Source: an uncultured virus (IMG/VR IMGVR_UViG_3300031278_000001) (lineage: Duplodnaviria; Heunggongvirae; Uroviricota; Caudoviricetes). From it: a stretch of DNA of 64,000 bases. Positions 895 to 49,144 of this stretch are shown piece by piece. The position numbers and the translations under genes were made by a program. Numbering within the stretch: the first letter of the stretch is position 1; the number at the start of each line of letters is the position of its first letter. Below the pieces are notes generated by a model. The model worked only from the letters and a program-made list of their open reading frames with translations. It did not search any database and had not been told where the DNA came from. The stretch lies in the IMG/VR virus record IMGVR_UViG_3300031278_000001; one strand, written 5' to 3'.

Positions 895-1827
895 TTAGGT
901 AGTCAGTTTGAATTTGCCACGTCCAACTGCACGACTATTATGCACAATCATACCAAGAAGCTCATAACCAACAAAACCCAATAATAGATTGTCAGGTTGA
1001 TCTGCTGGTATAATTTCGGCGTCTGCTCTCATAGGCATCCATGCAACAAACTCAGGAGCAGCTGTTACATAGAAATAACTCTGATTAGAATCATTTGGCT
1101 CTATAAGATTAGTTACGTAGAAATTAGCACCCCAGAGATTACCTAAATAACCAGTCTGACGAATTTCAATTCTAGCTACTTCATCAATATTAGTTCGATC
1201 CCAACGTCTGATACAGGAAATTCCATCGGGGTTGGTTATAATGGAAGTTCCTAACAAACGCCATTTTTCAACTTCTCTCATAACAAGTGCAACAGTATCA
1301 TCATTCAAAGGTCCTGCAACAGTGTGCTCTGAATTAGTTTGTGTTGCAGCGGTAAAAAGAAGCGAGAAAATATAAAGATCTTCTTTTATTGCTAAAGATT
1401 GTTTTAGTCTTTGTTTTACACGATCAAACACCTTATATTTACGAACCCTTAATTCCCTATAAGGAATCTTAGGATGACTTACTATCTGAAAATCCGGGAC
1501 TATTGTACGAATTGCATTGACAACAGTATAATGAGAAGCACCATCTTTACCAATTAAGGCACCACTCCATTCCTCAATATCGTTATCATAATACATCATA
1601 GCACCATCTGGAATAGTCTCGGTGACAGCTATCCGTCTTCCTATAGGAGCATAATCAAGATGCTTCCTTACCGGATTAGCAAGAGCAGCAGCTATCTTAG
1701 CTAAACCCGTTCTAGTCTGAAGAGCAAGGTTTAAAGCTGCTTCTTTTTTAAGAGAATCTCTTTGAGCCTCTTCAGGACTTTTTCTTACACTAAGTTTATT
1801 AGCAGTTACTTTAATTTCTTTACCCAT
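895..1827 (-). CDS. Major capsid protein (probable HK97 fold)
   Basis: 310 aa; last gene in portal-protease-scaffold-decoration order; LANPVRKHLDY..IGRR..V..IPDGA...YD and GYLGNLWGA motifs resemble large-phage MCPs; GGAGG RBS. Confidence 0.85.
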   Translation of the reverse strand: MGKEIKVTANKLSVRKSPEEAQRDSLKKEAALNLALQTRTGLAKIAAALANPVRKHLDYAPIGRRIAVTETIPDGAMMYYDNDIEEWSGALIGKDGASHYTVVNAIRTIVPDFQIVSHPKIPYRELRVRKYKVFDRVKQRLKQSLAIKEDLYIFSLLFTAATQTNSEHTVAGPLNDDTVALVMREVEKWRLLGTSIITNPDGISCIRRWDRTNIDEVARIEIRQTGYLGNLWGANFYVTNLIEPNDSNQSYFYVTAAPEFVAWMPMRADAEIIPADQPDNLLLGFVGYELLGMIVHNSRAVGRGKFKLTT

Positions 1828-3856: not shown

Positions 3857-4987
3857 CTATATTAAATCTTCTTCATCGAAAAGATGAGTTTTTCCCTCAA
3901 TCTTCACCTCATAAAGGCAAGCACTTACTTTTTTATATACTTTTCCAACAGTATCAAGAGAAGTAATATAAACAAGACTGCCTCTCTTAAACCTCTCTTC
4001 TATTTCACTTCTCATCTTCTCTTCCGTCTGGACAATTTCATTATCAAGATCAAAAGCTTCACAAGCAGAACTAAAAGCTTCCGGAAAAGCCATATCTTCT
4101 TGTTTCATCTTAGTAATAAGAAAATCTAAAGCTGACTTATAAACATCAGTATCTTCTTTTACCTCAGATTCATCAAGAGACTGAGAAATTCTTTCAATCT
4201 GTTTTTTCCTATCCACAATATATCTATTTAAAGGAAAAGATGCTAATCTTTCAATCATTTTAGCGTCAGGATCCGCACCTTCTCCACCAGCAAGCCCACC
4301 TAAATTTTGAGGTACAATAATAGAATCTTCAAAAAAAGTAATATCAAAACAACTCTCATAACACAATTTCTCTTCACCAGAAGAAGTTTTGATCATAGTA
4401 CCTTTAAAACCATTTCCCGGTAGTATATGGTCACAATATTCCTCATCATTAGTTGCAATATTGCCACATATAGAACATTGAGTCTCTCCGGCAAAACAAC
4501 CCATACTAGTATCAGTAATCTTTCCATCTTCGATCCAATCAACCAACAATGGAAATCTAGATGAAGCAACCGCCTTTTTATCTATAGCTAGAACATTCTC
4601 AACATACCCACCATCCACAAACACATCTTTATCCCCTTCTCGCCTAAATTGAGGGGGTATATATAAAGAGTCCAAAACCATACCAATTATAATATCGTCT
4701 TGATGATCTACTGACAACCTACAACCAACAAAAGTCATATTTCTTGTCTTCAATTCCTCATTAGGAAACCCATCACCGTTTTCATTAGGTCCATACCATT
4801 CTTCCGCTGAAATAGACCTATTACGGATATAAATATATCTCTCTGGATCAAGCTTAATCGGTTCAATAGCCGCAATTCTTTTACCAAAATTAGAAAAACC
4901 TTTAGTATTTAATGAATCTACTAAATTATTTATATTGTGATGGACTTCTACTATTTTCGTTTTGGTTCCAAATTTCCAAAAACCCAT
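3857..4987 (-). CDS. Probable prohead maturation protease with Cys-rich insert and C-terminal SH3-like module
   Basis: NENGDGFP..EL, VDH, DTSMGC (putative catalytic Ser), CSICGN..YCDH, GADPDA; position in head module. Confidence 0.75.
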   Translation of the reverse strand: MGFWKFGTKTKIVEVHHNINNLVDSLNTKGFSNFGKRIAAIEPIKLDPERYIYIRNRSISAEEWYGPNENGDGFPNEELKTRNMTFVGCRLSVDHQDDIIIGMVLDSLYIPPQFRREGDKDVFVDGGYVENVLAIDKKAVASSRFPLLVDWIEDGKITDTSMGCFAGETQCSICGNIATNDEEYCDHILPGNGFKGTMIKTSSGEEKLCYESCFDITFFEDSIIVPQNLGGLAGGEGADPDAKMIERLASFPLNRYIVDRKKQIERISQSLDESEVKEDTDVYKSALDFLITKMKQEDMAFPEAFSSACEAFDLDNEIVQTEEKMRSEIEERFKRGSLVYITSLDTVGKVYKKVSACLYEVKIEGKTHLFDEEDLI

Positions 4988-5664: not shown

Positions 5665-6873
5665 CTATAATTTAATTGGATCCTTTTGATCAAGAAGTTT
5701 ATGAAGATAAATATCTCCACTCTGTTTATCCACTTTCCATCTCTCATCTGAATTAACACTATTCAATGCTTGATCATAAACTTTAGTCTCTTCTATTTCT
5801 GATCCCTTTTCATTGAGAATAATATCAGCAATAAATTCAACATTCTCAGGAATAATTTTCCTTCCATCATAAGTGCAATCTTTATTCTCTTTCATTAAAT
5901 AATTGAGAACTTTAACAATAGCTGCTTTTTTAGAACTCGCCTCTACTTTATAAACATCTTCACCCATTGGAACACTATAACCTTTAATCTTATAATATCC
6001 CTTAATTAGGTCAAAAAGACCATCAACTTGAATATCGCTTTCCTTAATAGAAGCAGTATATCTCATATTAACAGAAAAATCTTTATCCACTATACGAACA
6101 CTTCCAGTAACATTACCCTCATTTTTATTATCTTCTTCCGGAACCACACTATCTATATGAATTTCATCCAATTCCAAGTTCTCATCAATATCAGTCAGAA
6201 TATTAGTTATCTTATCAGATGTCATATCAATGAGCTTTTGATACTGTCTATCCTCTTTAACCGAGTCTGAAAATTCACTGTCTACCGAAATTAAAGGTGA
6301 TATATGAGATACCGGTTCTTTCTCAGTAGTTTTTTCCACAACAATATCAGGGATCTGATCCTTATACTCCTCTTCATCGATCTTTTCTTTATTAAAAGAT
6401 TCAACAATCCTTTTTTCAATAGAGGTGGATAAAAATTTCTCACTTTTCTTATCATATCTCTTATTATCAAGGCTCACTACCGGATATTCATCGAGAATAA
6501 GTTTCGCCAATTTCTCAGAAGCATGTTTAGGATTGAAAGCTTTTGTCTCAAAGAGACTACCACTAACATTAACATTAAATTTACGAAGACCTAATTTCCT
6601 CTCAAAAGAATCCGATTCCAAAATAATTTCACCTTCTTCAACACGATAAGGGACCTGTACATCATTGCCAATAGCAGCTATAGCTATGGTCACAACACCT
6701 TTATTAGAGTCACTTTTATCACTGGTAACAATACGAGTGACTTCTGCTTCGAGATTATATTCACTGTTAAAATAAGAAGCTATATTCTTACTTATAAATC
6801 TTTCTTTTTCCTGCCTTTGATCTCTCTCAAGAACTCGACCAACATCAGATTTAAAATCATCACGAAATATCAT
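5665..6873 (-). CDS. Hypothetical head-module protein
   Basis: 402-aa acidic ORF directly downstream of the portal; RBS present. Confidence 0.6.
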   Translation of the reverse strand: MIFRDDFKSDVGRVLERDQRQEKERFISKNIASYFNSEYNLEAEVTRIVTSDKSDSNKGVVTIAIAAIGNDVQVPYRVEEGEIILESDSFERKLGLRKFNVNVSGSLFETKAFNPKHASEKLAKLILDEYPVVSLDNKRYDKKSEKFLSTSIEKRIVESFNKEKIDEEEYKDQIPDIVVEKTTEKEPVSHISPLISVDSEFSDSVKEDRQYQKLIDMTSDKITNILTDIDENLELDEIHIDSVVPEEDNKNEGNVTGSVRIVDKDFSVNMRYTASIKESDIQVDGLFDLIKGYYKIKGYSVPMGEDVYKVEASSKKAAIVKVLNYLMKENKDCTYDGRKIIPENVEFIADIILNEKGSEIEETKVYDQALNSVNSDERWKVDKQSGDIYLHKLLDQKDPIKL

Positions 6874-6887: not shown

Positions 6888-9800
6888 TTAATTAATATTT
6901 TTTTCCTTTCTTTTAGATTTTTGTTTTTTTACTCTCTCAATTTCTTTTTCCCCTAATTGATGTACTATTTTCTCAATACTCGCCTTTGTTTTTCTACCCA
7001 ATTGTCCATTTGTTATCGAATCCAAAGCCTTACCAGGAATAGTATAATCAACTGTTCCTGATTTTTTAAACTCAGGGGGTATCAACATATTTGTCTCATT
7101 AATATCTGATAATTTCAGATCTATATTAAGACCTTTTTTCTTAACAGCAGTTTTAACCTCCTCAAATACTTTCTTACGCATTTCTTGATATAGCTTATCA
7201 TGAACACTTCCCTGCTCTGCCAATAATTGTTCAACCTCATAATCAAAATCCATATCAAACACATTACACAAAGTCTTACTCGAAATGAGATTTTTATCCC
7301 ATAAATTTATAGCCATATTCTTATAATTAGTATCATCTAAAAGATTCGCCTTATATTGCCAATCAAAATCAGGAATAACAGGAGTCCTATCTTTGTAAGG
7401 TCTCCTAATACCATGATCAAGATCACACTTTTTAATCTCATAAAAATCATGCTCAACAGCTACCGGCAAAAACACATTTTTCTTCCAACTATTTTCCAAC
7501 ATTTGTCTTACTGGAATATATCTGGACAATAAAACTCTAGCGCCAATAGAAGCATTGTTATAAGTAGGACCAACACCAGATGTCAATGCTTTATTCGTAA
7601 ATAATGCCGTGAGAACTCGCTCTTCTATTTGCTGAAGATCCGCAAAAATATTAGGAAACTTACCAGCAGAGCCAACCACTTCATAACTAACTACATTCGG
7701 AACAACAAGTTTAAAATCTGGTTGCTGAGTGGAATCCAAAATTAAATTAGATAAAGATTGTAAATATTCTTGCGTTGGGAAAAAACTATCAGATCCTACC
7801 TTCCAAATTTCTTTAGGCGCAATATGTCTTTCAGCTACCGCCATCTGGGCCTCCCTCAAACGAGTTTCATGAATCAAATCTATCAAAGCACGTAAGACAA
7901 TCGAAGAACCCCTAATTGCATAAGGACTCTTCCTTTGCATAATCATCAGATTGAAAGTATCCAATTCGATAGCCTCAGTTGTTTCAATAGCTTCTACAAT
8001 ATCATGAGGCAATTTACCTTTCATGGATTCGCCTTCTTCACCACTGGTAAATAATTCTTTTATACTCTCTCCAAATCTCAATTTATAAATATAATCACTT
8101 TCATTACCAAGAATAGGAGTACCTATTATATCAACATATTCCGGTTGTAATAAAGCCGAATCACTCCACCAACCTTCTTTATCATCCCAATATAAATAGG
8201 TGAAAACCTCACCTATCAACCACCATTCTCTAAGTTGATCATACATCAACATCAAGGCATTCATTTGATCCAACATATCTTCATAAAATTGATGTATCTT
8301 GGGATCAGTAATACCTTTTATTCCAAAACGAGAAAGAGGTAGTTCAGTATGTAAGCTGATGCAATTAAAACACCCCACACCTTGCACCATATAAGTATGT
8401 TCTTTCTCTACCTCAATATTATAAACTACTCCATCAAAAGTCTCTTTTTCTATAGAAGAAATTTGCCTATATATTCTTTTATGTTCAGTATCAACAAAAA
8501 TATTTCTGCGAATTAAACTCTGAGTTAAACTCTTCTTACAATCACCACCATACACTTTTTCAAATGCCCAACGAGGCATAACCCCCCTCCATCTATTATG
8601 CTTTCCTACGATATTCCAACCATCTTTTCTGTTTCCTTCTGTAGGCACTATTTCTTTTAATGACACAGGAATATGCAACCTCTCTGCTATAAATTTAATT
8701 TGCCAAGCCAAATCTTTAGACACCGTAACATAAACAACTTCTTTTTTTCCAAAATGTCCGTCTCCTTTGAGATAGGATAACAAAAACACCTTTTGAAACT
8801 CAAGAGAAGCATATACAATATCATCACTCAATTTTTTAGTGGATGCCCCTTTCCCCACATGCTTAAGACAAAGACTGGCTAATTCTGTAGAACTGACAGC
8901 CACTTGATTATAATTTTTAGTGTATGATAAACCAAGATTATCCAAGCAAGAATAAATCTCCTCAATATATTCCTCTTCCGAACGATAAAAACACCATTGA
9001 ACTTTATCATTACCTACAACACCACCATTTAAGTCTTTTAAATGTTTATGTAATTTATCTGAATATTCTTTTTCGCTCCATTTTTTCTCAGCTCTTTCAT
9101 GTATTCTCTTACTTTCTTGATCACTGACCAATTTAGAACCAGGAAATCTTTTCAGATATTCTTCTCCCTTAACTCCATGTTTAAAGCAAATATGAGAACC
9201 TAACTGTAAAAACTCTTTACCGCATATTTTGCACTTAACTTTTTCATCTTTCCCATATTTCTTAATAGGACGAGAATATTTTCTATATTTATTAACAAAC
9301 CCTTCAGCGGCATAATATCCCAACAATATTGCATGCTCTATTTTTAAATCGTTCTCTTTAACAAAATCATTCATGGTTGTTATCAGATAATCTTTGGGTT
9401 TAATTTTTTCCACTGTTATCTGTTCAATTTTTAAATCATTAGAAGAACATTCATGATATTTACAACACCCACTTTCACCAAAATAACATCTCTTCGGGCT
9501 TTTTCTAACTTTACCATTCTTATCTTTATAATTTTTAAATTTACATTTAAATTCTTCTTCTCTTATGACAGGAAACTTATGTTCCCCTGTAACTTTAATT
9601 TCCTCCCTTACTCCCATAATTTTAAGTTTGAAAATTTCACCCTCATATTTAGGATTAAAAGTCTTAGTAACTTTCCTAGGTTGAGATAAATGATTTAACA
9701 CTTCTTCCCCAACTTTAATTTCCTCAATATTTTTAACAGTACCGTCAGCCATATTCACAGGTGTTCCTTCCACAAAACAATTCCCCACCAATGGGTGAAA

Positions 9801-10076
9801 AGTATCAAAATAGCGGCAATATTGGTTCAAAGTCGCCATGTCCCACGGGATATAGTAATTAATAAAACTAAGCAAAGGAGAATACCATTGTGGAGCTTCT
9901 GTCTTTAAATCACCGGTACGCCTCATATTAGATCCTGCAGTAACTGCCCTGGAAGTATAACCATTGCCATAACCACCATACCCACCCGCACCTTTGAAAA
10001 CAGGAGCACCTATTCCAGCGGATACTTTTCGTGTACCCACTTCTTCAATAAAATCCCTAGGTCTCTTATCAATCAT
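6888..10076 (-). CDS. Portal protein precursor containing an intein
   Basis: Extein motifs HPLVGN|CISLHTELPLS, REWWLIGEVF, RGSSIV.RAL, GPTYNNAS; about 590 aa after splicing. Confidence 0.85.
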   Translation of the reverse strand: MIDKRPRDFIEEVGTRKVSAGIGAPVFKGAGGYGGYGNGYTSRAVTAGSNMRRTGDLKTEAPQWYSPLLSFINYYIPWDMATLNQYCRYFDTFHPLVGNCFVEGTPVNMADGTVKNIEEIKVGEEVLNHLSQPRKVTKTFNPKYEGEIFKLKIMGVREEIKVTGEHKFPVIREEEFKCKFKNYKDKNGKVRKSPKRCYFGESGCCKYHECSSNDLKIEQITVEKIKPKDYLITTMNDFVKENDLKIEHAILLGYYAAEGFVNKYRKYSRPIKKYGKDEKVKCKICGKEFLQLGSHICFKHGVKGEEYLKRFPGSKLVSDQESKRIHERAEKKWSEKEYSDKLHKHLKDLNGGVVGNDKVQWCFYRSEEEYIEEIYSCLDNLGLSYTKNYNQVAVSSTELASLCLKHVGKGASTKKLSDDIVYASLEFQKVFLLSYLKGDGHFGKKEVVYVTVSKDLAWQIKFIAERLHIPVSLKEIVPTEGNRKDGWNIVGKHNRWRGVMPRWAFEKVYGGDCKKSLTQSLIRRNIFVDTEHKRIYRQISSIEKETFDGVVYNIEVEKEHTYMVQGVGCFNCISLHTELPLSRFGIKGITDPKIHQFYEDMLDQMNALMLMYDQLREWWLIGEVFTYLYWDDKEGWWSDSALLQPEYVDIIGTPILGNESDYIYKLRFGESIKELFTSGEEGESMKGKLPHDIVEAIETTEAIELDTFNLMIMQRKSPYAIRGSSIVLRALIDLIHETRLREAQMAVAERHIAPKEIWKVGSDSFFPTQEYLQSLSNLILDSTQQPDFKLVVPNVVSYEVVGSAGKFPNIFADLQQIEERVLTALFTNKALTSGVGPTYNNASIGARVLLSRYIPVRQMLENSWKKNVFLPVAVEHDFYEIKKCDLDHGIRRPYKDRTPVIPDFDWQYKANLLDDTNYKNMAINLWDKNLISSKTLCNVFDMDFDYEVEQLLAEQGSVHDKLYQEMRKKVFEEVKTAVKKKGLNIDLKLSDINETNMLIPPEFKKSGTVDYTIPGKALDSITNGQLGRKTKASIEKIVHQLGEKEIERVKKQKSKRKEKNIN
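8364..9779 (-). mobile_element. 472-aa intein with LAGLIDADG endonuclease and inserted C2H2 zinc finger
   Basis: Block A CFVEGTPV, block B VTGEHKF, LLGYYAAEG and FLLSYLKGDG, block F VYNIEVEKEHTY, terminal FN followed by Cys+1. Confidence 0.92.
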
Positions 10077-16688: not shown

Positions 16689-18425
16689 TTAACCCTCTTC
16701 TTTGAAATTATCCAACACTCTCTTACTAGTATCTACATAATTAAATAAAGATTTAATACCTACATCATCAAAATCATATTTCCTTCCCAATGAATCCCAA
16801 AAATAAGGTAAAACAGAAATCTTCTGTCCTTTTTTTATCATACGAATAAGAATATTTCTACTAGCCGTTTTTGTTCCCGCAATGTTCAAACTAATATCAA
16901 CTCTCTGCTCATCCCCCAGATCCTCCATCCCATACCAAGAAGCTGATAATACTGTCAATTTCAAAAATCTTTTAAGTTCAAATAACTTCTCATCAAGACT
17001 GGAAATCAATTTCTGATAATCATCCCGATTAAACATTGTATGAGTCTTTAACTTCCGGGTCAGAGGCAAATAACCAAGATCAAGACTTTCGCTCTTCACA
17101 AAAGTGGCCATATCGGTTTCTTTATTAATATCATCAGGAGCATGTTGATATTTATGGATCAAATTAGTTATCTCCGCATTTATATGGTCTAACTCAACAG
17201 TGTTCCCTGATTTTTCAGCCTCTTCCCTCTTGCTCACCCATTTATAATATTCCTCTCGGTCCAAGAAAGTAAATTGACTTATAATATCCGGTTCCACTTT
17301 CAGTTGTTCCCCGGACTTACCCTTATTAGGACCTACTGAGGGCAAACCACTCTTATCATTATCAACTTCCTCATCAAAGAAGCTTTCATCTATAATCGGC
17401 AAATCTTCCTCTTTCGGATTATTAGAAGTATCTTCCGAAACAGGATCCTCATTTTTAGGCGCTCCCTTATCAGTATCCGAAAAGTCTTGAGCTGTTTTCT
17501 TTGAAGCTATTTGATCAGAAGATTTATTTTCTTTCCAATTTTCAAAGTTCCGATCATAAGATAATTTAGAATCGTATGAATTCGTAAAAGATTGCCATAA
17601 TTCAACAGTTTCTGCCCCCGATTCCATACTCATATCTTCTTTGAATTTAGTAAAGTCAAGTGAAATTGAAGCATTTACATTCGATTTACCTTTACTCATC
17701 AATTCCACTATCTCTTCATGAGTGGGTTTATATTTGTCATGCAACCAAGATGGAAACATACCAAATTGACAACCAAATTTTTCATCATCATTCATTTTGT
17801 TCCACATTTCATCTATACGAGATCCTAATACTCTTGGGGATAACATTTTTGCTTTAGCTTCTTGTTCCGTCATTTTTACGAATTCTGTTAAAGGAACTGC
17901 AAAATCATAATCTCTATCATCAGAATCTATAAAATGAAATTTCCATGTTTTGTTACCATAAGCAATTCGCACATCTGGTTCCCCACCAGAACTTACTTCA
18001 ATATATCGCTTTGCCATTTTTTGTGCCATTTCAAAATCCTGTCCATCACTTACAAAAGCTGTTTTTTTATCAGCAACCATTACTTCCTCCTCAACTTCCT
18101 TACCAACTTCTTTTTCCTCCACATCACTCTTTCTTATTTGTAAATTCTCTAAACCAGTTCCTTCATACATTGGATCACGAGTACAATCAGCTGCCGGATC
18201 TAAACTTATACCAGTAGCTCCTATATCCGTATACATAAAGGGACCACTCTCAAGAGGATCGTGTATTCGCCTAATAAGTTTCTGAAAAAATATTTCCTCA
18301 GAGTGAGTATCCCTTATAGGGGCCAACAACACATCAAGAATTATTTCTTCTCCCGGCACGTAGGAGGGTACTGTAGGCAGCACCCTCTCATACCTACCGT
18401 GATGTTTTATCCTGCGGTCTTTCAT
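16689..18425 (-). CDS. Acidic modular protein (putative internal head cargo)
   Basis: Modules separated by DKKTA, SKKTA and TKTAS. Confidence 0.6.
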   Translation of the reverse strand: MKDRRIKHHGRYERVLPTVPSYVPGEEIILDVLLAPIRDTHSEEIFFQKLIRRIHDPLESGPFMYTDIGATGISLDPAADCTRDPMYEGTGLENLQIRKSDVEEKEVGKEVEEEVMVADKKTAFVSDGQDFEMAQKMAKRYIEVSSGGEPDVRIAYGNKTWKFHFIDSDDRDYDFAVPLTEFVKMTEQEAKAKMLSPRVLGSRIDEMWNKMNDDEKFGCQFGMFPSWLHDKYKPTHEEIVELMSKGKSNVNASISLDFTKFKEDMSMESGAETVELWQSFTNSYDSKLSYDRNFENWKENKSSDQIASKKTAQDFSDTDKGAPKNEDPVSEDTSNNPKEEDLPIIDESFFDEEVDNDKSGLPSVGPNKGKSGEQLKVEPDIISQFTFLDREEYYKWVSKREEAEKSGNTVELDHINAEITNLIHKYQHAPDDINKETDMATFVKSESLDLGYLPLTRKLKTHTMFNRDDYQKLISSLDEKLFELKRFLKLTVLSASWYGMEDLGDEQRVDISLNIAGTKTASRNILIRMIKKGQKISVLPYFWDSLGRKYDFDDVGIKSLFNYVDTSKRVLDNFKEEG

Positions 18426-18438
18426 ATTGTCCTACAAA

Positions 18439-18648
18439 TTAAAGATCTGATATTTGTACTTCTGAATCATGTCCAATAACTGTGTTGATTAAACCAACAG
18501 AAATTGCATTTGTCTGAACACCACCAGATTTCAATTCTAAAGAAGCTATACTGCCTGAGTATATAACACCATCATAGTAAGTACCCTCTTCATGAGTGTA
18601 AGCCTCATTAGGTGTTTGACTTGAGTTTGCGCTATCTGTATACTGCAT
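18439..18648 (-). CDS. Small hypothetical protein
   Basis: ORF with GGAGG RBS. Confidence 0.55.
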   Translation of the reverse strand: MQYTDSANSSQTPNEAYTHEEGTYYDGVIYSGSIASLELKSGGVQTNAISVGLINTVIGHDSEVQISDL

Positions 18649-18669
18649 AATTAATTCCCTCCATTTTTT

Positions 18670-19002
18670 TCAAATTAGTTTTTCTTTTTGTAAATACTTC
18701 ACAACCCCGGTATAAAAACCGGCATCAAATTTACCCTCTAACCAGGTCATTTCATCTATTAATTCCGATGTCGATGCATCATAATCTATATTATTACCAA
18801 CATCATTTCTCAATCTAAATGATAAATCATCTTTCCAAAAATCGTTCTCCTTATAAACAACCAAAAACTCTTTCATTAGATTTCTGTACTGTTCATGTGA
18901 ACTCTCTATACTGTGTATAAATTCATGTACATGTTCTCTGGCCAACTGACTACCAACATTTATTCCCTCTTTAAACCATTTCTTCTCAATTGCAGAATCC
19001 AT
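18670..19002 (-). CDS. Hypothetical protein
   Basis: ORF in operon. Confidence 0.55.
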   Translation of the reverse strand: MDSAIEKKWFKEGINVGSQLAREHVHEFIHSIESSHEQYRNLMKEFLVVYKENDFWKDDLSFRLRNDVGNNIDYDASTSELIDEMTWLEGKFDAGFYTGVVKYLQKEKLI

Positions 19003-19016
19003 TTTATACCCACTCG

Positions 19017-20813
19017 CTAAAGATTGTTATATAATTCTTCAGCCTCTTCTTGAGTTAATTTCTTGTTCTTTCTTTTTTCATATTCTTCAATTTCTCCTAC
19101 TTTCTTATAATGATCTGTAACAGAAGATCCTTTCTTCCTTTTTATTGTCCAAGACATATTTTTACCAGACTCTTCTTTTAATCCACTACCTCTGTCTGGT
19201 AACTCTTCAACTGTCTCCACCTTATCATCTGGATGTAACCTTTTATGACGTTCCAATCTATCTTTATCCGTAAATGGACGTCCCCTTCCTCGTTCCACAT
19301 TACGAGATGGCAATCCACTACCCCTGTCTGGTAACTCTTCCACTTTTTCTGCCTCATCTTTAGGATGAACTCTCTTATGTCTTTCCAATCTCTCAGCATC
19401 GGTCAATGGTTTTCCCCTTCCTCGATCCACCCTCGAAGATTCAGAAATATATCTACCACCTAAATCTTTATATATCTGATTCACTAGCACCCAATACCTT
19501 TCGCTAGATATTCTGGTATTAGCTTCATTGTATATTTCATCAGCTTTCTCTTTCGCCCTTGCTCGGATATCCTTATCCATCACCTTCTCCTCCTGATCAT
19601 CCAGAGAAGATATTATTTCTTCACCTTCCTGCTCTTTATATAACGCATCAAGAAAATCCATTTCTGTATAAGGAATATCAGGATAATTCACAGCTTTCTT
19701 TTTACTGCCTTCTAGTTCATCCCAGTTACCTTCCTGCTCTTTATCCTCTTTTCTCACTAAATTCCACACTTCTGAATCTATTATTTGATAAGCATAAGCA
19801 CAAGCTATCGCATCATAACCTGTTGCACCTAAAGTATCAAAATGAGAAGTATCACCCTCCCAATCCGTTACTATTAAATGACAATCATTATAATCTCCTA
19901 CATAAGGATCAATAAATTCAGATAATAAATCTAAAGCATCTTCCATATTATCATATATTCCATCTACTACATCACTTTTCAATTCATTATATATTTCTTG
20001 TGCTATATCATAAGGATCAGTCGATCTTTTAGTATAAAGACCTGATTCTTTAACCTTTTTCTCTACTACTCTTTTAGAAGATTCTATTCCAGGACCTTCT
20101 TCACCTCTTTCCGCTTTATCTATCTCATCCACTATCCTATCTTGTTCCTCTTCCCATTCATCTTTAACAGATTCTAAAGCAGAATAAGTTTCTTGTTCTA
20201 TAATCTGATAAGCATATGACTGAGCTATTTCATCATAACCTGTTGCACCCAAATCTTCCAAATTAGAAGTACTCCCCCCCCACCTTCTTATAATCTCATG
20301 ACAGTCAGAATAATAAGTAACATAAGGTTCAATCCACTCACTTAATCGATCTAATTTTTCTTCTAACAGAGATATTCTTTCATTATATATATCCATTGGA
20401 TCTACTTCTTCATCATGCTTAAAATATTCTGCCACATCTGGTTCCACTTCTTCTCTTAATTCATCGGCTATATATTTTGCTATTAAATAAGGATCAGTAT
20501 CATTATCTGCTTCTTTTTTCATCTCAGATACAAAAAGTTTACTTCTATCAGCTTCTTTCTCAAAACTATCATATTTCTTTAATATAGTAGCACCACCTTT
20601 ACGTTTCTTAATAGCACCACATATTTTTTCAGCTCTTTCTTGAGAATAATTTCCAACATTCATTTGATAATTCACACAACCACAAAATTTATTTGGGCCA
20701 CCACCATCCGGACACTTCTGAGATTTAAAAGTATCATCTTCATTTTGATACCTTTTATCTACATTCGCAATTTTTTTATTTAATTTCACTCTATTCCTAA
20801 TTTTTCTAGACAT
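19017..20813 (-). CDS. Modular protein with two Ocr-like acidic domains and two RGRG..TD..RLERH..ELPDRGSGL repeats
   Basis: Internal duplications visible in the translation; K-rich linkers. Confidence 0.7.
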   Translation of the reverse strand: MSRKIRNRVKLNKKIANVDKRYQNEDDTFKSQKCPDGGGPNKFCGCVNYQMNVGNYSQERAEKICGAIKKRKGGATILKKYDSFEKEADRSKLFVSEMKKEADNDTDPYLIAKYIADELREEVEPDVAEYFKHDEEVDPMDIYNERISLLEEKLDRLSEWIEPYVTYYSDCHEIIRRWGGSTSNLEDLGATGYDEIAQSYAYQIIEQETYSALESVKDEWEEEQDRIVDEIDKAERGEEGPGIESSKRVVEKKVKESGLYTKRSTDPYDIAQEIYNELKSDVVDGIYDNMEDALDLLSEFIDPYVGDYNDCHLIVTDWEGDTSHFDTLGATGYDAIACAYAYQIIDSEVWNLVRKEDKEQEGNWDELEGSKKKAVNYPDIPYTEMDFLDALYKEQEGEEIISSLDDQEEKVMDKDIRARAKEKADEIYNEANTRISSERYWVLVNQIYKDLGGRYISESSRVDRGRGKPLTDAERLERHKRVHPKDEAEKVEELPDRGSGLPSRNVERGRGRPFTDKDRLERHKRLHPDDKVETVEELPDRGSGLKEESGKNMSWTIKRKKGSSVTDHYKKVGEIEEYEKRKNKKLTQEEAEELYNNL

Positions 20814-20825
20814 TATACCTCCAAT

Positions 20826-21323
20826 TTAATCCCATATAATTTTTAGAATATTATTATCAACGACGTCCATCTCCATAGCACCCAACTGACTTAAAATATC
20901 ATAACTTCCTTCTATTTCATGTAAATCTCTTTCTACCCCCTCAAAATCAACATAAACACAAACACCCCCGCATCTACCAGTCTGAACTTTGACTGTCATA
21001 CATCCAAGAGCATCTCCTATAGGATCTAATTGATCCAACACTGAAGGTGTAAAAGTATTATATCCTCTCCAAAAACCTAAAGCAGATTCAAAATCCACCT
21101 CAGCTTCTTCAATAAGCAGCCATTTATCAGCTCTCCAATTAAGATCTCTCAATGTCATTGCAACTTCCATAATAGCTTTATCAAAAGGAGGTACATATAA
21201 TTCTCTAATTCTTTCCCTACTATCAACAAAATTAGTTATATACATCTCAAAATAAGCTCTTTCTATAGGAGAAGCTTTCCCATATATATCTTGTACTTGA
21301 TATGCCAATTCATTTAATTTCAT
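20826..21323 (-). CDS. Acidic hypothetical protein
   Basis: ORF with RBS. Confidence 0.55.
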   Translation of the reverse strand: MKLNELAYQVQDIYGKASPIERAYFEMYITNFVDSRERIRELYVPPFDKAIMEVAMTLRDLNWRADKWLLIEEAEVDFESALGFWRGYNTFTPSVLDQLDPIGDALGCMTVKVQTGRCGGVCVYVDFEGVERDLHEIEGSYDILSQLGAMEMDVVDNNILKIIWD

Positions 21324-21340
21324 TATACCCCCAAATTACA

Positions 21341-21480
21341 TGGAGTGGTTGGGAATCGAACCCAAGTTCTTGAGATAAAGAGCAGGAAGACCTACACTCC
21401 CTGACCGTTTTGTTAAAGCGGTTCCGTGAACACCGCTATAGGCTTTAGTTGTTCCATCCCAGTCAAAACCTTTCCACCCC
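21341..21480 (-). ncRNA. ssrA: Miniature tmRNA (140 nt)
   Basis: 5' GGGGTGGAAAGGTTTTGAC; acceptor GGGGTGG/CCACTCC-A with G3:U70; T-arm TTGGG-TTCGATT-CCCAA; P2 TGGGATGGA/TTTATCTCA. Confidence 0.8.
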
Positions 21481-21652
21481 AATTATTTTTTTCTATCCTT
21501 TATATTTACCATTAAAATAACTATAATAACAAAAATTCCAACAACACATGCAATAAAATCTGATAATGAATCAATCATATATTATATTCCTCACACCATT
21601 TACTGAATTATATTTTTATAAGAAAAGTAACTATCGACAGTAAAAAAGTACT

Positions 21653-22447
21653 TCAAATATGATGTCTCTTCCCACTAAAAAATTTAAACATATCCCGTCT
21701 GAGCTTGCATAACTTACTAATATCACCATCCCAATCTTTAGGATAAAAAACTATACCCTCTGCTGCCATTCCCTCAAAACCGATAGTCTTATTAACTCCC
21801 TGTGCTGTTCCACCAAAATCTACTTTCTTGGATCTCTTACGTTTACACAAACTCCATAACCCTTCAAACGCTTCTTTGACTATCGTATATTTCTCTGCCG
21901 ATGTCTTATCTTTACACAGTGGAACAATATCTTTATTCCAAAACTTATATTCATAATGCTTTTTCAAATATATAAATGGCATCCACAGATATCTATCCAA
22001 TTTATAGGGATTGCCATTCACCTTTGGGCCAATAAGCTCACCAAAATATTGTCCATTTTCCAAATCATTTAATTTTAGGTACTCTCTTTCAATAGATTTC
22101 TGTATTCCTTCAACAAACCGAAAACCACCTTTGCTCCAAAAAGGAATAGCATTTGTCCGGTTAAACATTCGGACAATATCATGATCTTCAATTACTATCG
22201 ATACACAGCTTCCATCCAATTTCTCCACTGCCACAACATTGTCTGTAAAGATCCACTCAAACCCGGGAGTTATTTCCGATGTCACCACATAATGATCTTC
22301 TTCATCTAATTGTCTTACAAACGGACTGCTTAATTTTGGCATGTCATGTATTTTTATTGGTTCCTTTTCTTCTTCTAACGGTTCAGTATGACATATATCA
22401 TCTATACAGGTTTCTACCGTATCCATTGCTTTATCTTCCTCACACAT
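21653..22447 (-). CDS. ATP-dependent RNA ligase-like protein
   Basis: Motif I EKLDGS, GELIGPKVNGNP, EGIVF, CKLRRDMF. Confidence 0.8.
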   Translation of the reverse strand: MCEEDKAMDTVETCIDDICHTEPLEEEKEPIKIHDMPKLSSPFVRQLDEEDHYVVTSEITPGFEWIFTDNVVAVEKLDGSCVSIVIEDHDIVRMFNRTNAIPFWSKGGFRFVEGIQKSIEREYLKLNDLENGQYFGELIGPKVNGNPYKLDRYLWMPFIYLKKHYEYKFWNKDIVPLCKDKTSAEKYTIVKEAFEGLWSLCKRKRSKKVDFGGTAQGVNKTIGFEGMAAEGIVFYPKDWDGDISKLCKLRRDMFKFFSGKRHHI

Positions 22448-22488
22448 TTTTATCTTCCTCCTTTTTCTTTATAATAATCTTTCATCTC

Positions 22489-23103
22489 TTATCCAACACC
22501 TTCCGCAAAATCTATAGCCATTTGTTTCGCATCATCCAATGTCTTAGCCTCCCACTCACCTTTACCCCATTTAGAAGGGAAATCCAAAAATGCCTCACCA
22601 ATATTTCCTCTTATTTTTTCATTAGGAGTGTTTTCACCAAACACCCATGAAACTCTTACTCCATCATCAACAAACTCACCTTTAATTTCTCTATGGTCTT
22701 TATCTTTCCAAAAGAGAAGACAAGAATCCAGAAAATCATCTTCATTTTTAGAACCATACCCAGCATCACCTTTTTTAACTTTTGAGCCTATTCCAAAACC
22801 ATAGAGTGCTCGATGTGACCAACCATACCATTTCTCTTGCTGAGGATTATAACCTATGTTGACAGTATGACCACTAATATTTTGTGAATTCTGCAATTGT
22901 TCTGTAATACCCAATCGAAGCAAAAATTTAAACCCATCCTTTTCCATTCCCTCCCGGGTGAAATACGATCCATCAATCTTAGAATAATAACACATCTCCT
23001 TATCATTTGGAATATCACTTGGTTTCTTCTCTGCAACCTCATCAATAAAACTCATTAACATTTTTTGTGTAATTCTTCTTTGTCTAACTTTTTCATCTTT
23101 CAT
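22489..23103 (-). CDS. Phage hypothetical protein
   Basis: KWYGWSHRA.YGFGIG and AKTLDDAKQMAIDFA motifs; GGAGG RBS before ATG 23103. Confidence 0.6.
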   Translation of the reverse strand: MKDEKVRQRRITQKMLMSFIDEVAEKKPSDIPNDKEMCYYSKIDGSYFTREGMEKDGFKFLLRLGITEQLQNSQNISGHTVNIGYNPQQEKWYGWSHRALYGFGIGSKVKKGDAGYGSKNEDDFLDSCLLFWKDKDHREIKGEFVDDGVRVSWVFGENTPNEKIRGNIGEAFLDFPSKWGKGEWEAKTLDDAKQMAIDFAEGVG

Positions 23104-23124
23104 AACTTTACCTCCAATCTTACG

Positions 23125-23181
23125 TATACAATTTGTATGCAATCATATACAATTTGTATGCAATCATATACAATTTGTATA
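23125..23181. repeat. 21-bp tandem repeat, about 2.7 copies, with palindromic core
   Basis: tatacaatttgtatgcaatca at 23125 and 23146, partial copy at 23167. Confidence 0.95.
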
Positions 23182-23183
23182 CA

Positions 23184-24068
23184 TTATTTATCAAACAACG
23201 ACTTTCCCTTAAGATCCTGTTCTAGAATATATTCCTCAGCTTTCTTTTTATTCTCCTTTGATTTATCCAAATCAGAAAAATCATCAACAACAGCATGCGC
23301 CCATTTAATAGTGACAGGTATATACCTTCCATCTTTCTCCATTCTCTCCAGCACCGAATAATGAACATTTTCTTCTATTTCATTGTCCAAAACTTTACCT
23401 GAATTTTCTAACATAATAGAGGCATTAACAGTTTCTTTTTTAGATTCGGTTTTTACCCCTTCTTGTTTGGACATTTCATACTCCTTATTCTCTTTATAAT
23501 CAGACACCCAGGATTCAGCCAACTCAGTATAATCAATCTCATCCATTCCCGCCCTGAGCAATCCTGTAAGTATAGCCGGTAATTCATATTCAGCTGCTAT
23601 ATCTTCAAGCCATTCTTTTATTTCCTCAGCTAATTTATAAACAGGAGCTTTATCTGCTGGCAATATATTATCTTTAACCATATCCATTCCAGAAACTTGC
23701 CCTATCAACTCTTCTATTCTTTCATTCCAATATTCTATATCTCCCGGACTATTATCAACCATAAGAGCAATGTGCCAAGTCTCATAATTCGTCCATCCCT
23801 GATAATCAGATTTCTTTTCTACACTACCCTTCTTCTCGTTGGAAGACTCTTCTATGATATTTATTTTACCTTTATCCTTATAATATTTCTCAGATTCTTC
23901 ATTTCTTTGAAGCCTATCATACGCTTTTAATTCTTCAATAAGATCCTCTCTAGATACATCTTCTTGAAATACATCACCTATCATGTCTTTCGCCATATCT
24001 AAAAGTTCTTCTAAAGACATACCTTCATAATTAACTGCTTCTACTTCAACACTCATATATTCCTCCAT
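23184..24068 (-). CDS. Acidic modular protein with a GWTNYETW domain
   Basis: EKKS|DYQGWTNYETW module; SKKE linker. Confidence 0.65.
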   Translation of the reverse strand: MEEYMSVEVEAVNYEGMSLEELLDMAKDMIGDVFQEDVSREDLIEELKAYDRLQRNEESEKYYKDKGKINIIEESSNEKKGSVEKKSDYQGWTNYETWHIALMVDNSPGDIEYWNERIEELIGQVSGMDMVKDNILPADKAPVYKLAEEIKEWLEDIAAEYELPAILTGLLRAGMDEIDYTELAESWVSDYKENKEYEMSKQEGVKTESKKETVNASIMLENSGKVLDNEIEENVHYSVLERMEKDGRYIPVTIKWAHAVVDDFSDLDKSKENKKKAEEYILEQDLKGKSLFDK

Positions 24069-24080
24069 AAATAATTTTAA

Positions 24081-24248
24081 GAATGTGGGGTGGGTTTCGT
24101 CAAATCAGAAGCTTATCCCTGATTATTACCCACAACCAACTACCCCATGTTTACGTCTTTATAAGTTGGAACCATTCTCTACTATCTGCTTCATAATAAA
24201 CAATGTGCATTAGGCCACGGGATCAGCCTTATTCTGCCACCCACATTC
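24081..24248 (-). ncRNA. tRNA-like RNA with hairpin insertions in the D, anticodon and T loops
   Basis: Terminal stem GAATGTGGG/CCCACATTC; TG-GCAG..TGC D-stem; T-stem GTGGG/CCCAC stacked on the acceptor. Confidence 0.6.
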
Positions 24249-24253
24249 AAATT

Positions 24254-24592
24254 TCATACTTTATTAGTTTCTCCCATTTTAAATTTACGTACATCCCCGG
24301 CCTTAGGAATAGTCAAATTACTCGTCTGTTGTATATACATATTTTTCATTTCTTCATTCAATAACACTGGAATCATTATCATCGCATGTTTATACAAAAA
24401 TATATCTTTATCGGGGAAAGGAATCCACCTGATAGCCATTCTACCTTGTTCATCGGGTGGAAATTTAATAACTTTATATGCTCTTCTTACTTGAATAGTA
24501 TCATCTTTTTCCTTAACAAATTTACCTACGATTGCCAGCCCATTAACTAACTCTACTTGTATTATTTCATCTTTTAACTGATCTAAACTCAT
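24254..24592 (-). CDS. Sm/LSm-like fold protein
   Basis: VELVNG..IVG, RWIPF, YIQQTSNL pattern seen in large phages. Confidence 0.45.
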   Translation of the reverse strand: MSLDQLKDEIIQVELVNGLAIVGKFVKEKDDTIQVRRAYKVIKFPPDEQGRMAIRWIPFPDKDIFLYKHAMIMIPVLLNEEMKNMYIQQTSNLTIPKAGDVRKFKMGETNKV

Positions 24593-24617
24593 TTATACCT
24601 CCAATCTTTATTGTTAT

Positions 24618-24645
24618 AATATAATGCATTTTCTTGTTTTGTCAA
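24618..24645 (-). promoter_or_regulatory. sigma70-type promoter
   Basis: TTGACA-N16-TATATT. Confidence 0.7.
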
Positions 24646-24651
24646 CTATTT

Positions 24652-24912
24652 CTACTTAATACCTTTACAAACAGCATTGTAATACTTTTCACCCTCCTGA
24701 GAATCAACAAGAGGTAAAAGTATTTCCTCTTTATCATCGATTATCAAACGCAAAATACGTTTATCACCAGAAGCCCATAATTCCGCCCTGCCATTCTTTC
24801 CAACATTGCGACCGGTCTTTTGACCCACCTCTTGGATCACACCCTCTTTAGAGTCTAATAAACGGGATTGACCATTATCTAGATCATCAAATGCGGAGTA
24901 TATCTTTCCCAC
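24652..24912 (-). CDS. Hypothetical protein
   Basis: ORF with GGGAG RBS. Confidence 0.5.
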   Translation of the reverse strand: MGKIYSAFDDLDNGQSRLLDSKEGVIQEVGQKTGRNVGKNGRAELWASGDKRILRLIIDDKEEILLPLVDSQEGEKYYNAVCKGIK

Positions 24913-24923
24913 AATATTCTCCC

Positions 24924-25976
24924 TTAAAAATAACTATCATGAATTATATTCTGAAGATTCTCAGCGGCATCCACAGATATACGTAACTTATTTGCAAGAT
25001 CCTCTTCATCCATTTCCACCAATCTTATTATTTCCTCATCAGTAGTATTAAAGTTAGAAACTTCTACCGGATCTTCATCCATATCAGTATATAAATCTTG
25101 TGCTTGTTTTTTAGAAGATTTTCTCACCCATTCTCCATCTTTATAAACAAAAATTCTAGTATGAGTTCCATCTCGGAATGTAACTTCATTGCCTTCTTCA
25201 GCCCTATTTTTTTCAGCAGGTGTAATTTCACTTATTAATTCCTCATCAGTAAATTCAGATACATCCCAAGTTACAGTATGTTCTTCCCCAGCTTCTTTTT
25301 TTGTTCCGGAAACTTTTTTATCTTCTATTGTATCAAGATATTCACTGATAGTCATATAATTAGAACCGGGTTCTATAACTATATCAATAGAATTTTGAAC
25401 TGTGTCATGTGCCAATCCACCACCATCAAATACACCTATATACACCAATTTATTTATAGCCTTAATCATCTCATCTTTATCTAAATTTTCAACCTCCCAT
25501 GTCATTCCATAAACTTCACCATCTAAACCAGCCAATCCCTCAAAAGAAGCAACAGAAGGTTTAAGCTCTGTCATTAAAGATTCTAATTCATTTAATATAG
25601 TATCATAATCCTCTCCATATGATTCCTCTTCTACTGCAATCCCAATACAATAAAGTTCATCATCCGGAAGTTTTGATATAATCTCTTCTTGAGAAGTATA
25701 TGCTAATTTCTTAGAAGATTTTTTATTTACTTTAATCAAATCATTTTTATAAACTCCCTCAGTCACACCAGAATCCCAGTGAACCCAAACCATTTTTTTA
25801 GCAGGATCTGTATAAATTCCATAACCAAGTGCCCCCCCTTCCTGAGCAACAATTATTCCTTCATCTCCTGGTCTCGCATGATAATCAAAAAGAAGAGAGG
25901 CATAAGTCATCTCAACTCTATCCCCTTCTCTAAATGATACAGCTCCTATTAATTCCTTTTTCTTAATTTCACTCAT
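24924..25976 (-). CDS. Acidic modular protein (SH3-like domain plus three modules)
   Basis: Linkers SSKKLA, TKKEA, SSKKQA. Confidence 0.65.
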   Translation of the reverse strand: MSEIKKKELIGAVSFREGDRVEMTYASLLFDYHARPGDEGIIVAQEGGALGYGIYTDPAKKMVWVHWDSGVTEGVYKNDLIKVNKKSSKKLAYTSQEEIISKLPDDELYCIGIAVEEESYGEDYDTILNELESLMTELKPSVASFEGLAGLDGEVYGMTWEVENLDKDEMIKAINKLVYIGVFDGGGLAHDTVQNSIDIVIEPGSNYMTISEYLDTIEDKKVSGTKKEAGEEHTVTWDVSEFTDEELISEITPAEKNRAEEGNEVTFRDGTHTRIFVYKDGEWVRKSSKKQAQDLYTDMDEDPVEVSNFNTTDEEIIRLVEMDEEDLANKLRISVDAAENLQNIIHDSYF

Positions 25977-25991
25977 AATAATTTCACTCCT

Positions 25992-26669
25992 TTACTCACA
26001 ATAATATTTAAAATTTCTAGCCTTTTTGTTGACAATAGATATAGCTTCCTCATCACCATTAACAGCCTTCGCTATTTCATCGGGGGTGCCTATCCAATCC
26101 TGCCAACCTAAATAAATATTAGGATAAACACCACAAGCAGTAATATCGTCAGCTCGTTTTTCTCCCTCTATTTGAGCTTGAACCATTGGTCCAATATCTT
26201 CATCCCCAGGTTCTACACCGATATATTTCAATTTACCTTTGGTTGCCACTTCTATACCCCTCACTATTCCCACCAAATCCTGGGCCGCCTCATAATATTC
26301 TCCACCTTCTTCTATATCCTCCTCAGATAAAGCAGCTCTCACTTTATGACCATAGATGCCCGGAACATATTTCACATCTATCTTAACCGGATAAGGGAGA
26401 TCAATTGGATTTACCTCATTTGAGTCCATAATTTTTTCTTCAAATAATTTATTTACATCATAAGATGTATAATTAGGATTGTTTGAAAATACATCCATTG
26501 CCTCATAGAGTTCCATACCCACCTCAGATACTTTTGCTTCTTCTTCTCCATCATAAGGACGCTCTTCTGGGGCAATAATAAACATAACATCATAATCTAG
26601 ATTACTAGAATTATATAACTGATCAGAATCCACTGTCACAGTTTTAGACATAATACTTACATCTGACAC
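25992..26669 (-). CDS. Acidic two-module protein
   Basis: HKVRA linker; GGAGG RBS. Confidence 0.6.
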   Translation of the reverse strand: MSDVSIMSKTVTVDSDQLYNSSNLDYDVMFIIAPEERPYDGEEEAKVSEVGMELYEAMDVFSNNPNYTSYDVNKLFEEKIMDSNEVNPIDLPYPVKIDVKYVPGIYGHKVRAALSEEDIEEGGEYYEAAQDLVGIVRGIEVATKGKLKYIGVEPGDEDIGPMVQAQIEGEKRADDITACGVYPNIYLGWQDWIGTPDEIAKAVNGDEEAISIVNKKARNFKYYCE

Positions 26670-33088: not shown

Positions 33089-33095
33089 AAATATT

Positions 33096-47801: not shown

Positions 47802-47804
47802 AGT

Positions 47805-48278: not shown

Positions 48279-48291
48279 GTTATTTTCTTCC

Positions 48292-48492: not shown

Positions 48493-48503
48493 TGATACCC
48501 CCA

Positions 48504-49136: not shown

Positions 49137-49144
49137 ACTTCCTC

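Follow-up and report, generated by a model that had tools for sequence, protein, structure and literature searches.

Module chains joined by a Ser-Lys-Lys-x-Ala motif: candidate polyprotein substrates of the head-maturation protease in an uncultured phage of the Bacillus phage G capsid lineage

The IMG/VR virus record IMGVR_UViG_3300031278_000001 was analysed over a stretch of 64,000 nucleotides (the window; G+C ~33%, with all long open reading frames [ORFs] on the minus strand), which covers part of the genome of a large, uncultured phage with a capsid lineage of the Bacillus phage G type. Four proteins encoded between positions 16689 and 25976 consist of modules connected by short basic linkers that end in the same way, and the linker motif is real and specific once narrowed to [S/A/G]-S-K-K-x-A. 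Comparison of the sequences suggests, with a probability that we put at about 0.6, that these joints are cleavage sites of the head-maturation protease within polyproteins packaged in the capsid. Cleavage and the identity of the enzyme are inferred from where the motif recurs, and packaging and injection of the resulting pieces are proposed by analogy. The four proteins and a second cluster of similar genes are as follows, with arrows marking the predicted cuts.

16689..18425, minus strand: Polyprotein A, 578 aa, isoelectric point (pI) 4.9; conserved N part (1 to ~115) and C part (~305–578) around a swappable middle cassette; sites ADKKTA↓F (aa 118–123, nt 18057–18074) and ASKKTA↓Q (aa 307–312, nt 17490–17507)
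19017..20813, minus strand: Polyprotein B, 598 aa, pI 4.8; basic, Cys-containing N part, then two copies of an acidic module of ~110–130 aa; sites EMKKEA↓D (aa 97–102, nt 20508–20525; first module copy begins just after), TKRS↓T (aa 261–264; second copy begins just after) and GSKKKA↓V (aa 369–374, nt 19692–19709; closes the second copy)
23184..24068, minus strand: Protein C, 294 aa, pI 4.4; acidic leader, then joints, then a weak DUF7249-like start (GWTNYETW); sites NEKKGS↓V / EKKS↓D (aa 77–87, nt 23808–23840) and ENKKKA↓E (aa 272–277, close to the C-terminus)
24924..25976, minus strand: Polyprotein D, 350 aa, pI 4.4; four predicted modules, 12–85 (SH3-like barrel), 93–223, 230–286 and 293–350; sites SSKKLA↓Y (aa 87–92, nt 25701–25718), GTKKEA↓G (aa 224–229, nt 25290–25307) and SSKKQA↓Q (aa 287–292, nt 25101–25118)
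46500..51610, minus strand: the second cluster, comprising the DUF5661 protein 46500..47801, small paralogues (48292..50147), and the proteins 49145..49780 and 50144..51610
46500..47801, minus strand: DUF5661 protein, the domain starting at residue 22 after NKKS (E = 1.2e-20); site EKQS↓D
49145..49780, minus strand: protein with ASKKTS↓S at aa 123–128
50144..51610, minus strand: protein with EMKKMA↓R, ESRKTA↓Q, DMKKKS↓V and MRKKSA↓I

The first four ORFs are referred to below as the four proteins; the set of six adds proteins of the second cluster, which contains at least two further polyproteins (49145–51610). An earlier sequence-only reading of the span 16689–26669 had described acidic modules separated by K-x-[A/S/G] linkers, and every peptide that it quoted was found in the minus-strand ORF to which it had been assigned. 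As titled, that motif is too loose and lies near chance, with 39 occurrences in the four proteins against 30.0 expected (1.3-fold, P = 0.04); it was the narrower form that proved strongly enriched. KK.[AS] occurs 13 times against 1.9 expected (none of 2000 shuffles reached 13) and SKK.A four times against 0.04. An unbiased ranking of gapped triplets, made to guard against post hoc choice of a motif, placed K-K-x-A first among ~48,000 (9 in the four proteins against 0.77 expected, p = 1.3e-7), three orders of magnitude ahead of the next triplet, and outside the top 12 in the other 95 ORFs of the window. Across the six proteins, x-[A/S] comes after 18 of the 35 KK dipeptides, and the residue is Ala in 12 of these (background 4.8%); this enrichment of 7.2-fold compares with 0.4–3.7-fold for other spacings and acidic controls. 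S-K-K and K-x-K-A control patterns are also somewhat enriched. The two larger proteins of the second cluster hold five KK.[AS] against 0.6 expected.

Upstream of the basic pair the joints prefer Ser at P5 and Ser, Ala or Gly at P6. Their codons vary from site to site (AAA or AAG; GCT, GCA, GCG or GCC; TCT, TCA or AGT), which points to selection on the peptide and not to a DNA repeat; a repeat or recombination signal at the DNA level was ruled out on this ground. A HeH/YqbF-like reading of the joint, prompted by a single Pfam match (E = 0.17, residues 89–106), was rejected because the sequences after other joints are unrelated.

The joints fall where modules begin and end, as in Polyprotein D. 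An exhaustive HMMER search with this protein returned 14 others, each matching one module only, and the matches map to residues 12–91, 89–244, 97–216, 226–291 and 285–350. Joints in these homologues read SSKKMA↓Q, ASKKEA↓Q, GGSKKLA↓R, GSKKKG↓D, SSQRKKA↓A, SQKKKA↓L and ASKKSS↓N. In one homologue (P0006) the modules are arranged differently, and other homologues stand alone as genes of 72–121 aa, one of which starts two residues after the predicted cut A92↓Y93. Across 28 proteins, 47.7% of 111 internal BLAST endpoints, which are not mutually independent, lie within eight residues of a K[KR].[ASG] site, compared with 14.7% ± 3.2 of random positions (maximum 28.8% in 1000 trials). Site placement relative to module boundaries, which the sequence-only reading had put forward as a check, is non-random. 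An AlphaFold2 (AF2) model of Polyprotein D (11-row alignment; mean predicted local distance difference test [pLDDT] 64) has three segments below pLDDT 50 (86–99, 222–228 and 288–309), and these hold all three strict sites, between better-predicted domains. Foldseek returned no match of this model in the PDB at E ≤ 0.001. The best VIA-align scores, at Z up to 7.7 within the noise range, were to an SH3/KOW-like barrel (10–88) and a ferredoxin-like fold (104–204), from which no function is drawn.

Exchange of modules between joints of this kind recurs in the larger proteins. Homologues of Polyprotein B (P0002–P0004) keep its ends and carry different modules between joints that read SSKKKA, GSIKKKS (twice), GSSKKLA, ESSKKLA and TSSKKVA; no match to Polyprotein B was obtained by tblastn in 50,697 phage records. 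After its last site, GSKKKA↓V, lies a 132-bp tandem duplication (79% match; window 19180–19430) by which RGRGKPLTD-x-ERLERHKR-x-HP...EELPDRGSG is encoded twice. This peptide is also present, in one or two copies, in the otherwise different P0002, P0003 and P0004, and could be a shared docking or targeting element. An ortholog of Polyprotein A (P0096, 53% identity) has an unrelated middle cassette, bounded by the retained SKKT[A/G]↓Q site, which is SKKTG↓Q there; an ESM Atlas look-up of Polyprotein A gave no usable match. Protein C is the weakest member of the set. Within the span as first delimited, the acidic ORF 25992..26669 (minus strand, 225 aa) has no KK.[AS] site and no family match, and stands outside the motif-bearing set. 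Judged by these comparisons, each polyprotein is a string of small modules that fold independently, can be exchanged in evolution and are connected by a short exposed linker.

The modules of 50–120 aa given by the sequence-only reading were not borne out, the predicted pieces being 58–272 aa long, and acidity is a true feature (pI 4.4–4.9) that is not distinctive, since 42% of the window's 101 ORFs have a pI below 5.5. The module starting GWTNYETW was said to follow directly on a linker, and the DUF7249 match does begin at residue 87, five residues past KKGS(82), although the match itself is weak (E = 2.2e-4; 22.6 bits against a Pfam cutoff of 27). The DUF5661-like domain does follow its leader closely, starting at residue 22 of 46500..47801. 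An Ocr-like module could not be confirmed, as the six proteins have no Ocr, ArdA or other anti-defence Pfam match at E ≤ 5. No Pfam family scores above cutoff in any of the six proteins, which also contain no embedded peptidase domain, and no family match of any module points to anti-defence proteins or DNA mimics.

The second cluster has further features. Four adjacent genes (window 48292–50147, minus strand) encode near-identical N-termini of the form M-K-(V/H)-Y-(S/D)-(K/T)-F-K-K-K-[S/G/A], so that a KKK[ASG] site stands ~10–25 residues from each start. Adjoining the cluster is a gene for a 123-aa protein of W-x-x-x-G-F repeats (51871–52242, minus strand), which has two homologues (35–36% identity) between the portal and protease genes of a related locus, L003 (3785–4921); these homologues tie the second cluster to the head module.

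The case for the proposed enzyme rests on recurrence of the motif in the head module, which occupies the low-coordinate end of the window and the genes of which are listed below.

895..1827, minus strand: major capsid protein (MCP), HK97 fold, phage-G type, 310 aa (phrog_2522 2.2e-42; PDB 6wkk E = 2.2e-56); candidate leader site SLKKEA↓A (aa 25–30, nt 1738–1755)
1846–2334, minus strand: decoration-like gene of the head module
2353..3513, minus strand: basic protein of 386 aa in the scaffold position, between the protease and the decoration/MCP genes; candidate sites GGKKEA↓Y, DMKKIS↓K, RVKKIS↓E and EKKA↓E
3857..4987, minus strand: head-maturation (prohead) protease, 376 aa (phrog_18299 'head maturation protease' E = 1.4e-10; phrog_2774 E = 1.7e-25); candidate self-cleavage sites FGKRIA↓A on the N side of the catalytic domain (aa 34–39, nt 4871–4888) and ERLA↓S on its C side (aa ~246–250, nt 4241–4255)
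5665..6873, minus strand: portal-adjacent acidic protein, 402 aa; ASSKKAA↓I (aa 312–318, nt 5920–5937)
6888..10076, minus strand: portal protein (phrog_16240 1.9e-42) with an intein and LAGLIDADG endonuclease (Pfam Intein_splicing, LAGLIDADG_3, Hom_end_hint)

The gene order (portal 6888–10076, protease 3857–4987, scaffold-position protein 2353–3513, decoration 1846–2334, MCP 895–1827) agrees with that of related loci, and the MCP is 37.5% identical to gp27 of Bacillus phage G. The scaffold-position protein has no family match in Pfam or PHROG and owes its name to its position. Both KK.[AS] matches of the portal protein are located within its intein portion. Relatives were reached through a 32-sequence MCP alignment, which retrieved 24 IMG/VR loci of 27–57% G+C; single-protein scans of IMG/VR with Polyprotein B, Polyprotein D and the MCP gave no close relatives, so the alignment alone reached them.

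The product of 3857..4987 is, from its sequence, a serine protease of the prohead-protease class. It has no Pfam family match at E ≤ 5 and aligns with phage G gp19, both being encoded between the portal and MCP genes; gp19 is named head maturation protease in a 2025 paper (PMC12484599). The catalytic domain spans about residues 40–250 and includes a cluster of cysteines (C171/C174/C185). H95 and S161 are invariant in ten aligned proteases and probably form the catalytic pair. The presence of similar motifs in head proteins, as claimed by the sequence-only reading, was borne out (KKEA in the MCP, EKKA in the scaffold-position protein and KRIA in the protease). Among 20 distinct proteases of the lineage, 14 have [KR]-x-A within 14 residues before the catalytic domain (13 with A, S or G next), including KRIA↓A of the window and VKTA↓A of phage G gp19, and 12 have it within 12 residues past the domain; the background for such flank windows is 20%. 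In the MCP, 61 of 75 sequences have [KR]-x-A in one N-terminal column, with a variable upstream part of 9–58 aa. Scaffold-position proteins and protease-scaffold fusions of relatives contain 8–12 [KR][KR].[AS] sites each, and the fusions (in L011, L012, L018 and L023) have [KR]-x-A↓S after the domain.

In four related loci, polyproteins are encoded within the head module, no more than 10 kb from the MCP gene:

L012, 1602–4352: polyprotein with twelve [A/G]SKRTA↓S joints between modules of ~60 residues
L018, 40–1236: polyprotein directly upstream of the portal
L005, 3599–5329: polyprotein just after the MCP, with four [A/S]SKK[I/T]A joints
L004, 12359–14344: polyprotein just after the MCP

A hidden Markov model (HMM) of module 1 of Polyprotein D found no match outside the window in any ORF of the 24 related loci, so the polyproteins of relatives share joints, not modules. 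A position matrix derived from 24 sites in the polyproteins of these four loci was applied to the 101 window ORFs (18,968 aa); at a threshold of 9 it gave ten matches against 1.4 expected, three in head proteins, seven in the claimed proteins (13% of residues) and none in other ORFs. By P1 residue these are MCP 30; portal-adjacent protein 317/318; Polyprotein A 123, 312 and 521; Polyprotein B 374; Polyprotein D 229 and 292; and 128 of the 49145 protein. The portal-adjacent protein 5665..6873 scores 14.2, among the window's four best, and Protein C has no match at this threshold. The polyproteins have their motif in common with the portal-adjacent protein, with the leader of the MCP and with the flanks of the protease domain, a trait of internal head proteins processed by prohead proteases; in the scaffold-position protein of the window it is weak. 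The protease assignment of the sequence-only reading is indirectly supported in modified form, with the linkers as predicted sites tied to the head-maturation protease by the protease flanks, the MCP leader, the dense sites in scaffold proteins and head-module polyproteins of other phages, and the matrix, and without the overly loose K-x-[A/S/G]. Prediction of a complex between protease residues 40–252 (10-row alignment) and the Polyprotein D linker 70–110 gave scores of 0.41, 0.02 and 0.02, which speak neither for nor against it.

The sequence of events proposed is as follows. The protease 3857–4987 would recognise a core with Ala at P1, Lys or Arg at P3 and a free choice of residue at P2, extended in this phage to S-K-K-x-A, and would cut on the C-terminal side of the Ala. 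Self-processing would take place at both flanks of the catalytic domain, and the same enzyme would take the leader off the N-terminus of the MCP and break down the scaffold. Proteases of this class work within the procapsid, so the polyproteins would be incorporated during its assembly and diced there into pieces of ~60–270 residues, which would stay in the head and could leave it with the DNA.

Several observations weigh against this scheme. The polyprotein genes lie 6.6–16 kb upstream of the portal gene, outside the head module, and among them stand an RNA ligase gene and a Tad6 gene with a putative operator array of its own. P1′ is variable at the joints of the window (F, Q, D, V, Y, G) and mostly Ser or Ala in relatives. 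The MCP site stands within a conserved helix with Glu fixed at P2, and may therefore be kept for structural reasons. Phage G gp27 has neither a leader nor an Ala at this site, and phage G, the sole cultured relative, gives a weak matrix signal at an equal threshold (3 matches against 0.9 expected, in a set of 52 proteins encoded near the head genes). In the window itself the matrix finds no match at threshold 9 in the scaffold-position protein. Enrichment of [KR][KR].A in 26 head-internal proteins of relatives is modest (2.4-fold, against 1.8-fold in 292 other proteins and 1.4–2.0-fold for control spacings), and the placement of the motif in proteases and MCPs is the stronger line of evidence. 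The first site of Polyprotein A (DKKTA) is not kept in the ortholog P0096, and the AF2 model of Polyprotein B (4-row alignment, mean pLDDT 45) is not usable for questions of linker or fold.

Of the competing explanations, the one that survives best, though it is unlikely, is that the joints are never cut and S-K-K-x-A is a flexible linker or a short binding motif (for DNA, for the scaffold, or as a repeated capsid-targeting tag) in intact multi-domain chains. Many polyvalent proteins are described as delivered uncleaved (PMC5512222); the motif is basic and the modules acidic, Lys-rich linkers are common, and the S-K-K and K-x-K-A controls share some of the enrichment. Ordinary linkers, however, do not retain one ordered peptide across unrelated modules and distant phages, and the most enriched residue at these joints is the Ala at the last position (12 of 35, against 4.8%). 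Stand-alone modules begin or end at the joints, and the motif is found at both ends of the protease domain. Proteases of T4, HK97 and herpesviruses release themselves at the flanks of their domain.

It is rather improbable that cutting takes place in the cytoplasm by another protease, from the host or from a phage gene beyond the window, so that each gene yields many small proteins that are never packaged. The location of the genes outside the head module, beside Tad6 and other non-structural genes, would suit such an arrangement, as would the lack of an evident common capsid-targeting leader on the four proteins, and the window is only 64 kb of a larger genome. Nevertheless, a Pfam scan of 73 window proteins revealed no other protease, and the motif recurs across the lineage at the head protease flanks and the MCP leader, and fills scaffold regions that would be expected to meet the head protease alone. 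It is also kept in phages of 27–57% G+C, which argues against reliance on the enzyme of one host. That the joints are a by-product of composition (Lys/Ser/Ala-rich low-complexity stretches in an AT-rich genome) and of post hoc motif choice is highly improbable. In its favour, the motif as first defined is only 1.3-fold over expectation, full shuffles ignore local composition and some controls reach threefold; against it, K-K-x-A tops the unbiased scan and is not enriched in the other 95 ORFs, a matrix trained on foreign sites recovers the claimed proteins, and the sites coincide with homology boundaries and predicted linkers.

The span 16689–26669 lies upstream of fibre-like genes, and its polyprotein genes have the following neighbours; other features of the window are listed with them.

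21653–22447, minus strand: RNA ligase (Pfam 1.3e-8)
22489–23142, minus strand: homologue of Tad6, an inhibitor of type I Thoeris (PF25188, E = 8.7e-38, 130 bits against a cutoff of 27)
10805–12106, minus strand: TnpB/Cas12f-like gene (weak Pfam TNB-domain match) between the portal and tail-side genes
14855–15982, minus strand: fibre-like protein with a hydrophobic, signal-peptide-like leader (MKKIFLLLLLIPLFCFG)
42429–44282, minus strand: fibre-like protein with many N-A-F-G-type repeats and a hydrophobic, signal-peptide-like leader (MKRLLFFLTLSLLGFSKG)
33013–33089, minus strand: tRNA-Pro (TGG), single gene

Upstream of Tad6, a perfect 15-bp palindrome (TATACAAATTGTATA on the minus strand) occurs in three intergenic copies at 21-bp spacing (window 23125–23180), and the array ends ~20 bp before the Tad6 ribosome-binding site and ATG. 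The 21-bp unit is confined to this array in the window (two full matches, 0.01 expected) and has the look of an operator array to which a dimeric regulator would bind. The TTG start listed for the Tad6 ORF falls inside the array, so translation probably begins 13 codons downstream, at an ATG. Tad6 as a neighbour is a weak hint of an anti-defence setting for the polyproteins. A promoter and terminator scan of 14000–28000 stayed at chance (71 against 64.6 and 6 against 4.5), and no transcription units were drawn from it. The N-termini of the four proteins show no evident common leader, and the N-terminal ~100 aa are the best-conserved parts of Polyproteins A and B. Elsewhere in the window, signal-peptide-like leaders such as those of the two fibre-like proteins are unusual for phage structural proteins. 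A copy of the TnpB/Cas12f-like gene, 33% identical, is found in L004 (8483–9823) between the scaffold-position and MCP genes, and the different insertion points in the window and in L004 indicate that the element entered the two head modules independently.

A broader and more speculative proposal, doubtful on present comparisons, is that a 'cargo code' operates throughout the lineage: segments bracketed by [K/R]-x-Ala would be loaded as polyproteins, freed by an assemblin-type head protease and injected with the DNA as immediate-early effectors, and the joints would double as evolutionary splice points for module swaps. Were this so, the proteins that uncultured phages inject could be deduced from their sequences, modules could be swapped between phages without breaking folding or processing, and orphan modules (SH3-like barrels, DUF7249, DUF5661 and acidic repeats) would make up a reservoir of first-strike anti-defence proteins. 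Cleavage of packaged polyproteins by the head protease would by itself, if true, amount to a second head-protease rule, basic-x-Ala, which is closer to the herpesvirus rule and which dices chains of shuffled mini-domains. Sequence would then suffice to predict the capsid cargo of uncultured large phages, many orphan modules would be placed in a functional context for the first time, and there would be a natural model for how foreign proteins might be loaded into capsids and released.

Head proteases that process packaged and ejected proteins are known from T4 and the phiKZ-like giant phages, where the cut comes after glutamate in every case. In T4, the substrates of gp21 are the gp23 leader, the scaffold gp22, the protease itself, the internal proteins IPI–III, and Alt, with capsid-targeting sequences. 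The system predicted here resembles it in that one head protease and one short motif would serve the MCP leader, the scaffold, the protease itself and packaged cargo. It differs in that the proposed cut comes after Ala with Lys or Arg at P3, in that whole module chains would be diced whereas T4 cargo loses one N-terminal leader, and in that no capsid-targeting leader was identified among the four N-termini. The motif of T4 gp21 is I/L-x-E, with cleavage after Glu (PMC12991175), and that of SPN3US gp245 is A-x-E, also cut after Glu (PMC10052503). The joints described here end in Ala, and follow neither I/L-x-E nor A/S/G-x-E; EE.[AS]-type controls are depleted.

With phiKZ (head protease gp175) and SPN3US the phage has in common a large capsid, a head-protease motif that can be read from sequence (as predicted here) and several sites per protein. 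The head proteases of giant phages process many internal proteins, and sites are repeated in some propeptides; apart from self-cleavage, the cuts identified there remove N-terminal propeptides and do not fall at the joints of module chains (PMC10052503). The protease and MCP described here belong to the lineage of phage G, and are not phiKZ-like. Polyvalent proteins offer a second comparison, being multi-domain proteins with shuffled domains that are often encoded beside virion genes and are predicted to travel with the DNA (Iyer et al. 2017; PMC5512222). The polyproteins likewise are multi-domain chains with a shuffled domain order among relatives. Polyvalent proteins are defined by conflict domains (methylases, ADP-ribosyltransferases [ARTs], ArdC, nucleases), often with an embedded metallopeptidase for self-processing, and the consulted portion of that account describes no conserved joint motif, its main text not containing the word 'linker' (PMC5512222). 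The polyproteins, unlike them, have no recognisable conflict or enzymatic domains and no embedded peptidase. Neither a K/R-x-Ala rule for a phage head protease nor linker-coded cargo polyproteins were found in the portions of the literature consulted (including PMC12484599, PMC5512222, PMC10052503, PMC12749128, PMC12991175 and PMC7824862).

The herpesvirus assemblin (UL26-type) provides a third comparison. As is proposed for this lineage, its sites have Ala at P1, in many cases with Ser next, and one of them directly follows the catalytic domain; it too comes as a protease fused to scaffold that frees itself by self-cleavage, as the protease-scaffold fusions of the relatives would. The assemblin consensus is (V/L/I)-x-A↓S, and the P3 residue is therefore hydrophobic, unlike the Lys or Arg proposed here. 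If the joints are indeed cut by the head-maturation protease, the evolutionary connection of herpesvirus assemblin with the prohead proteases of phages would stand out more sharply.

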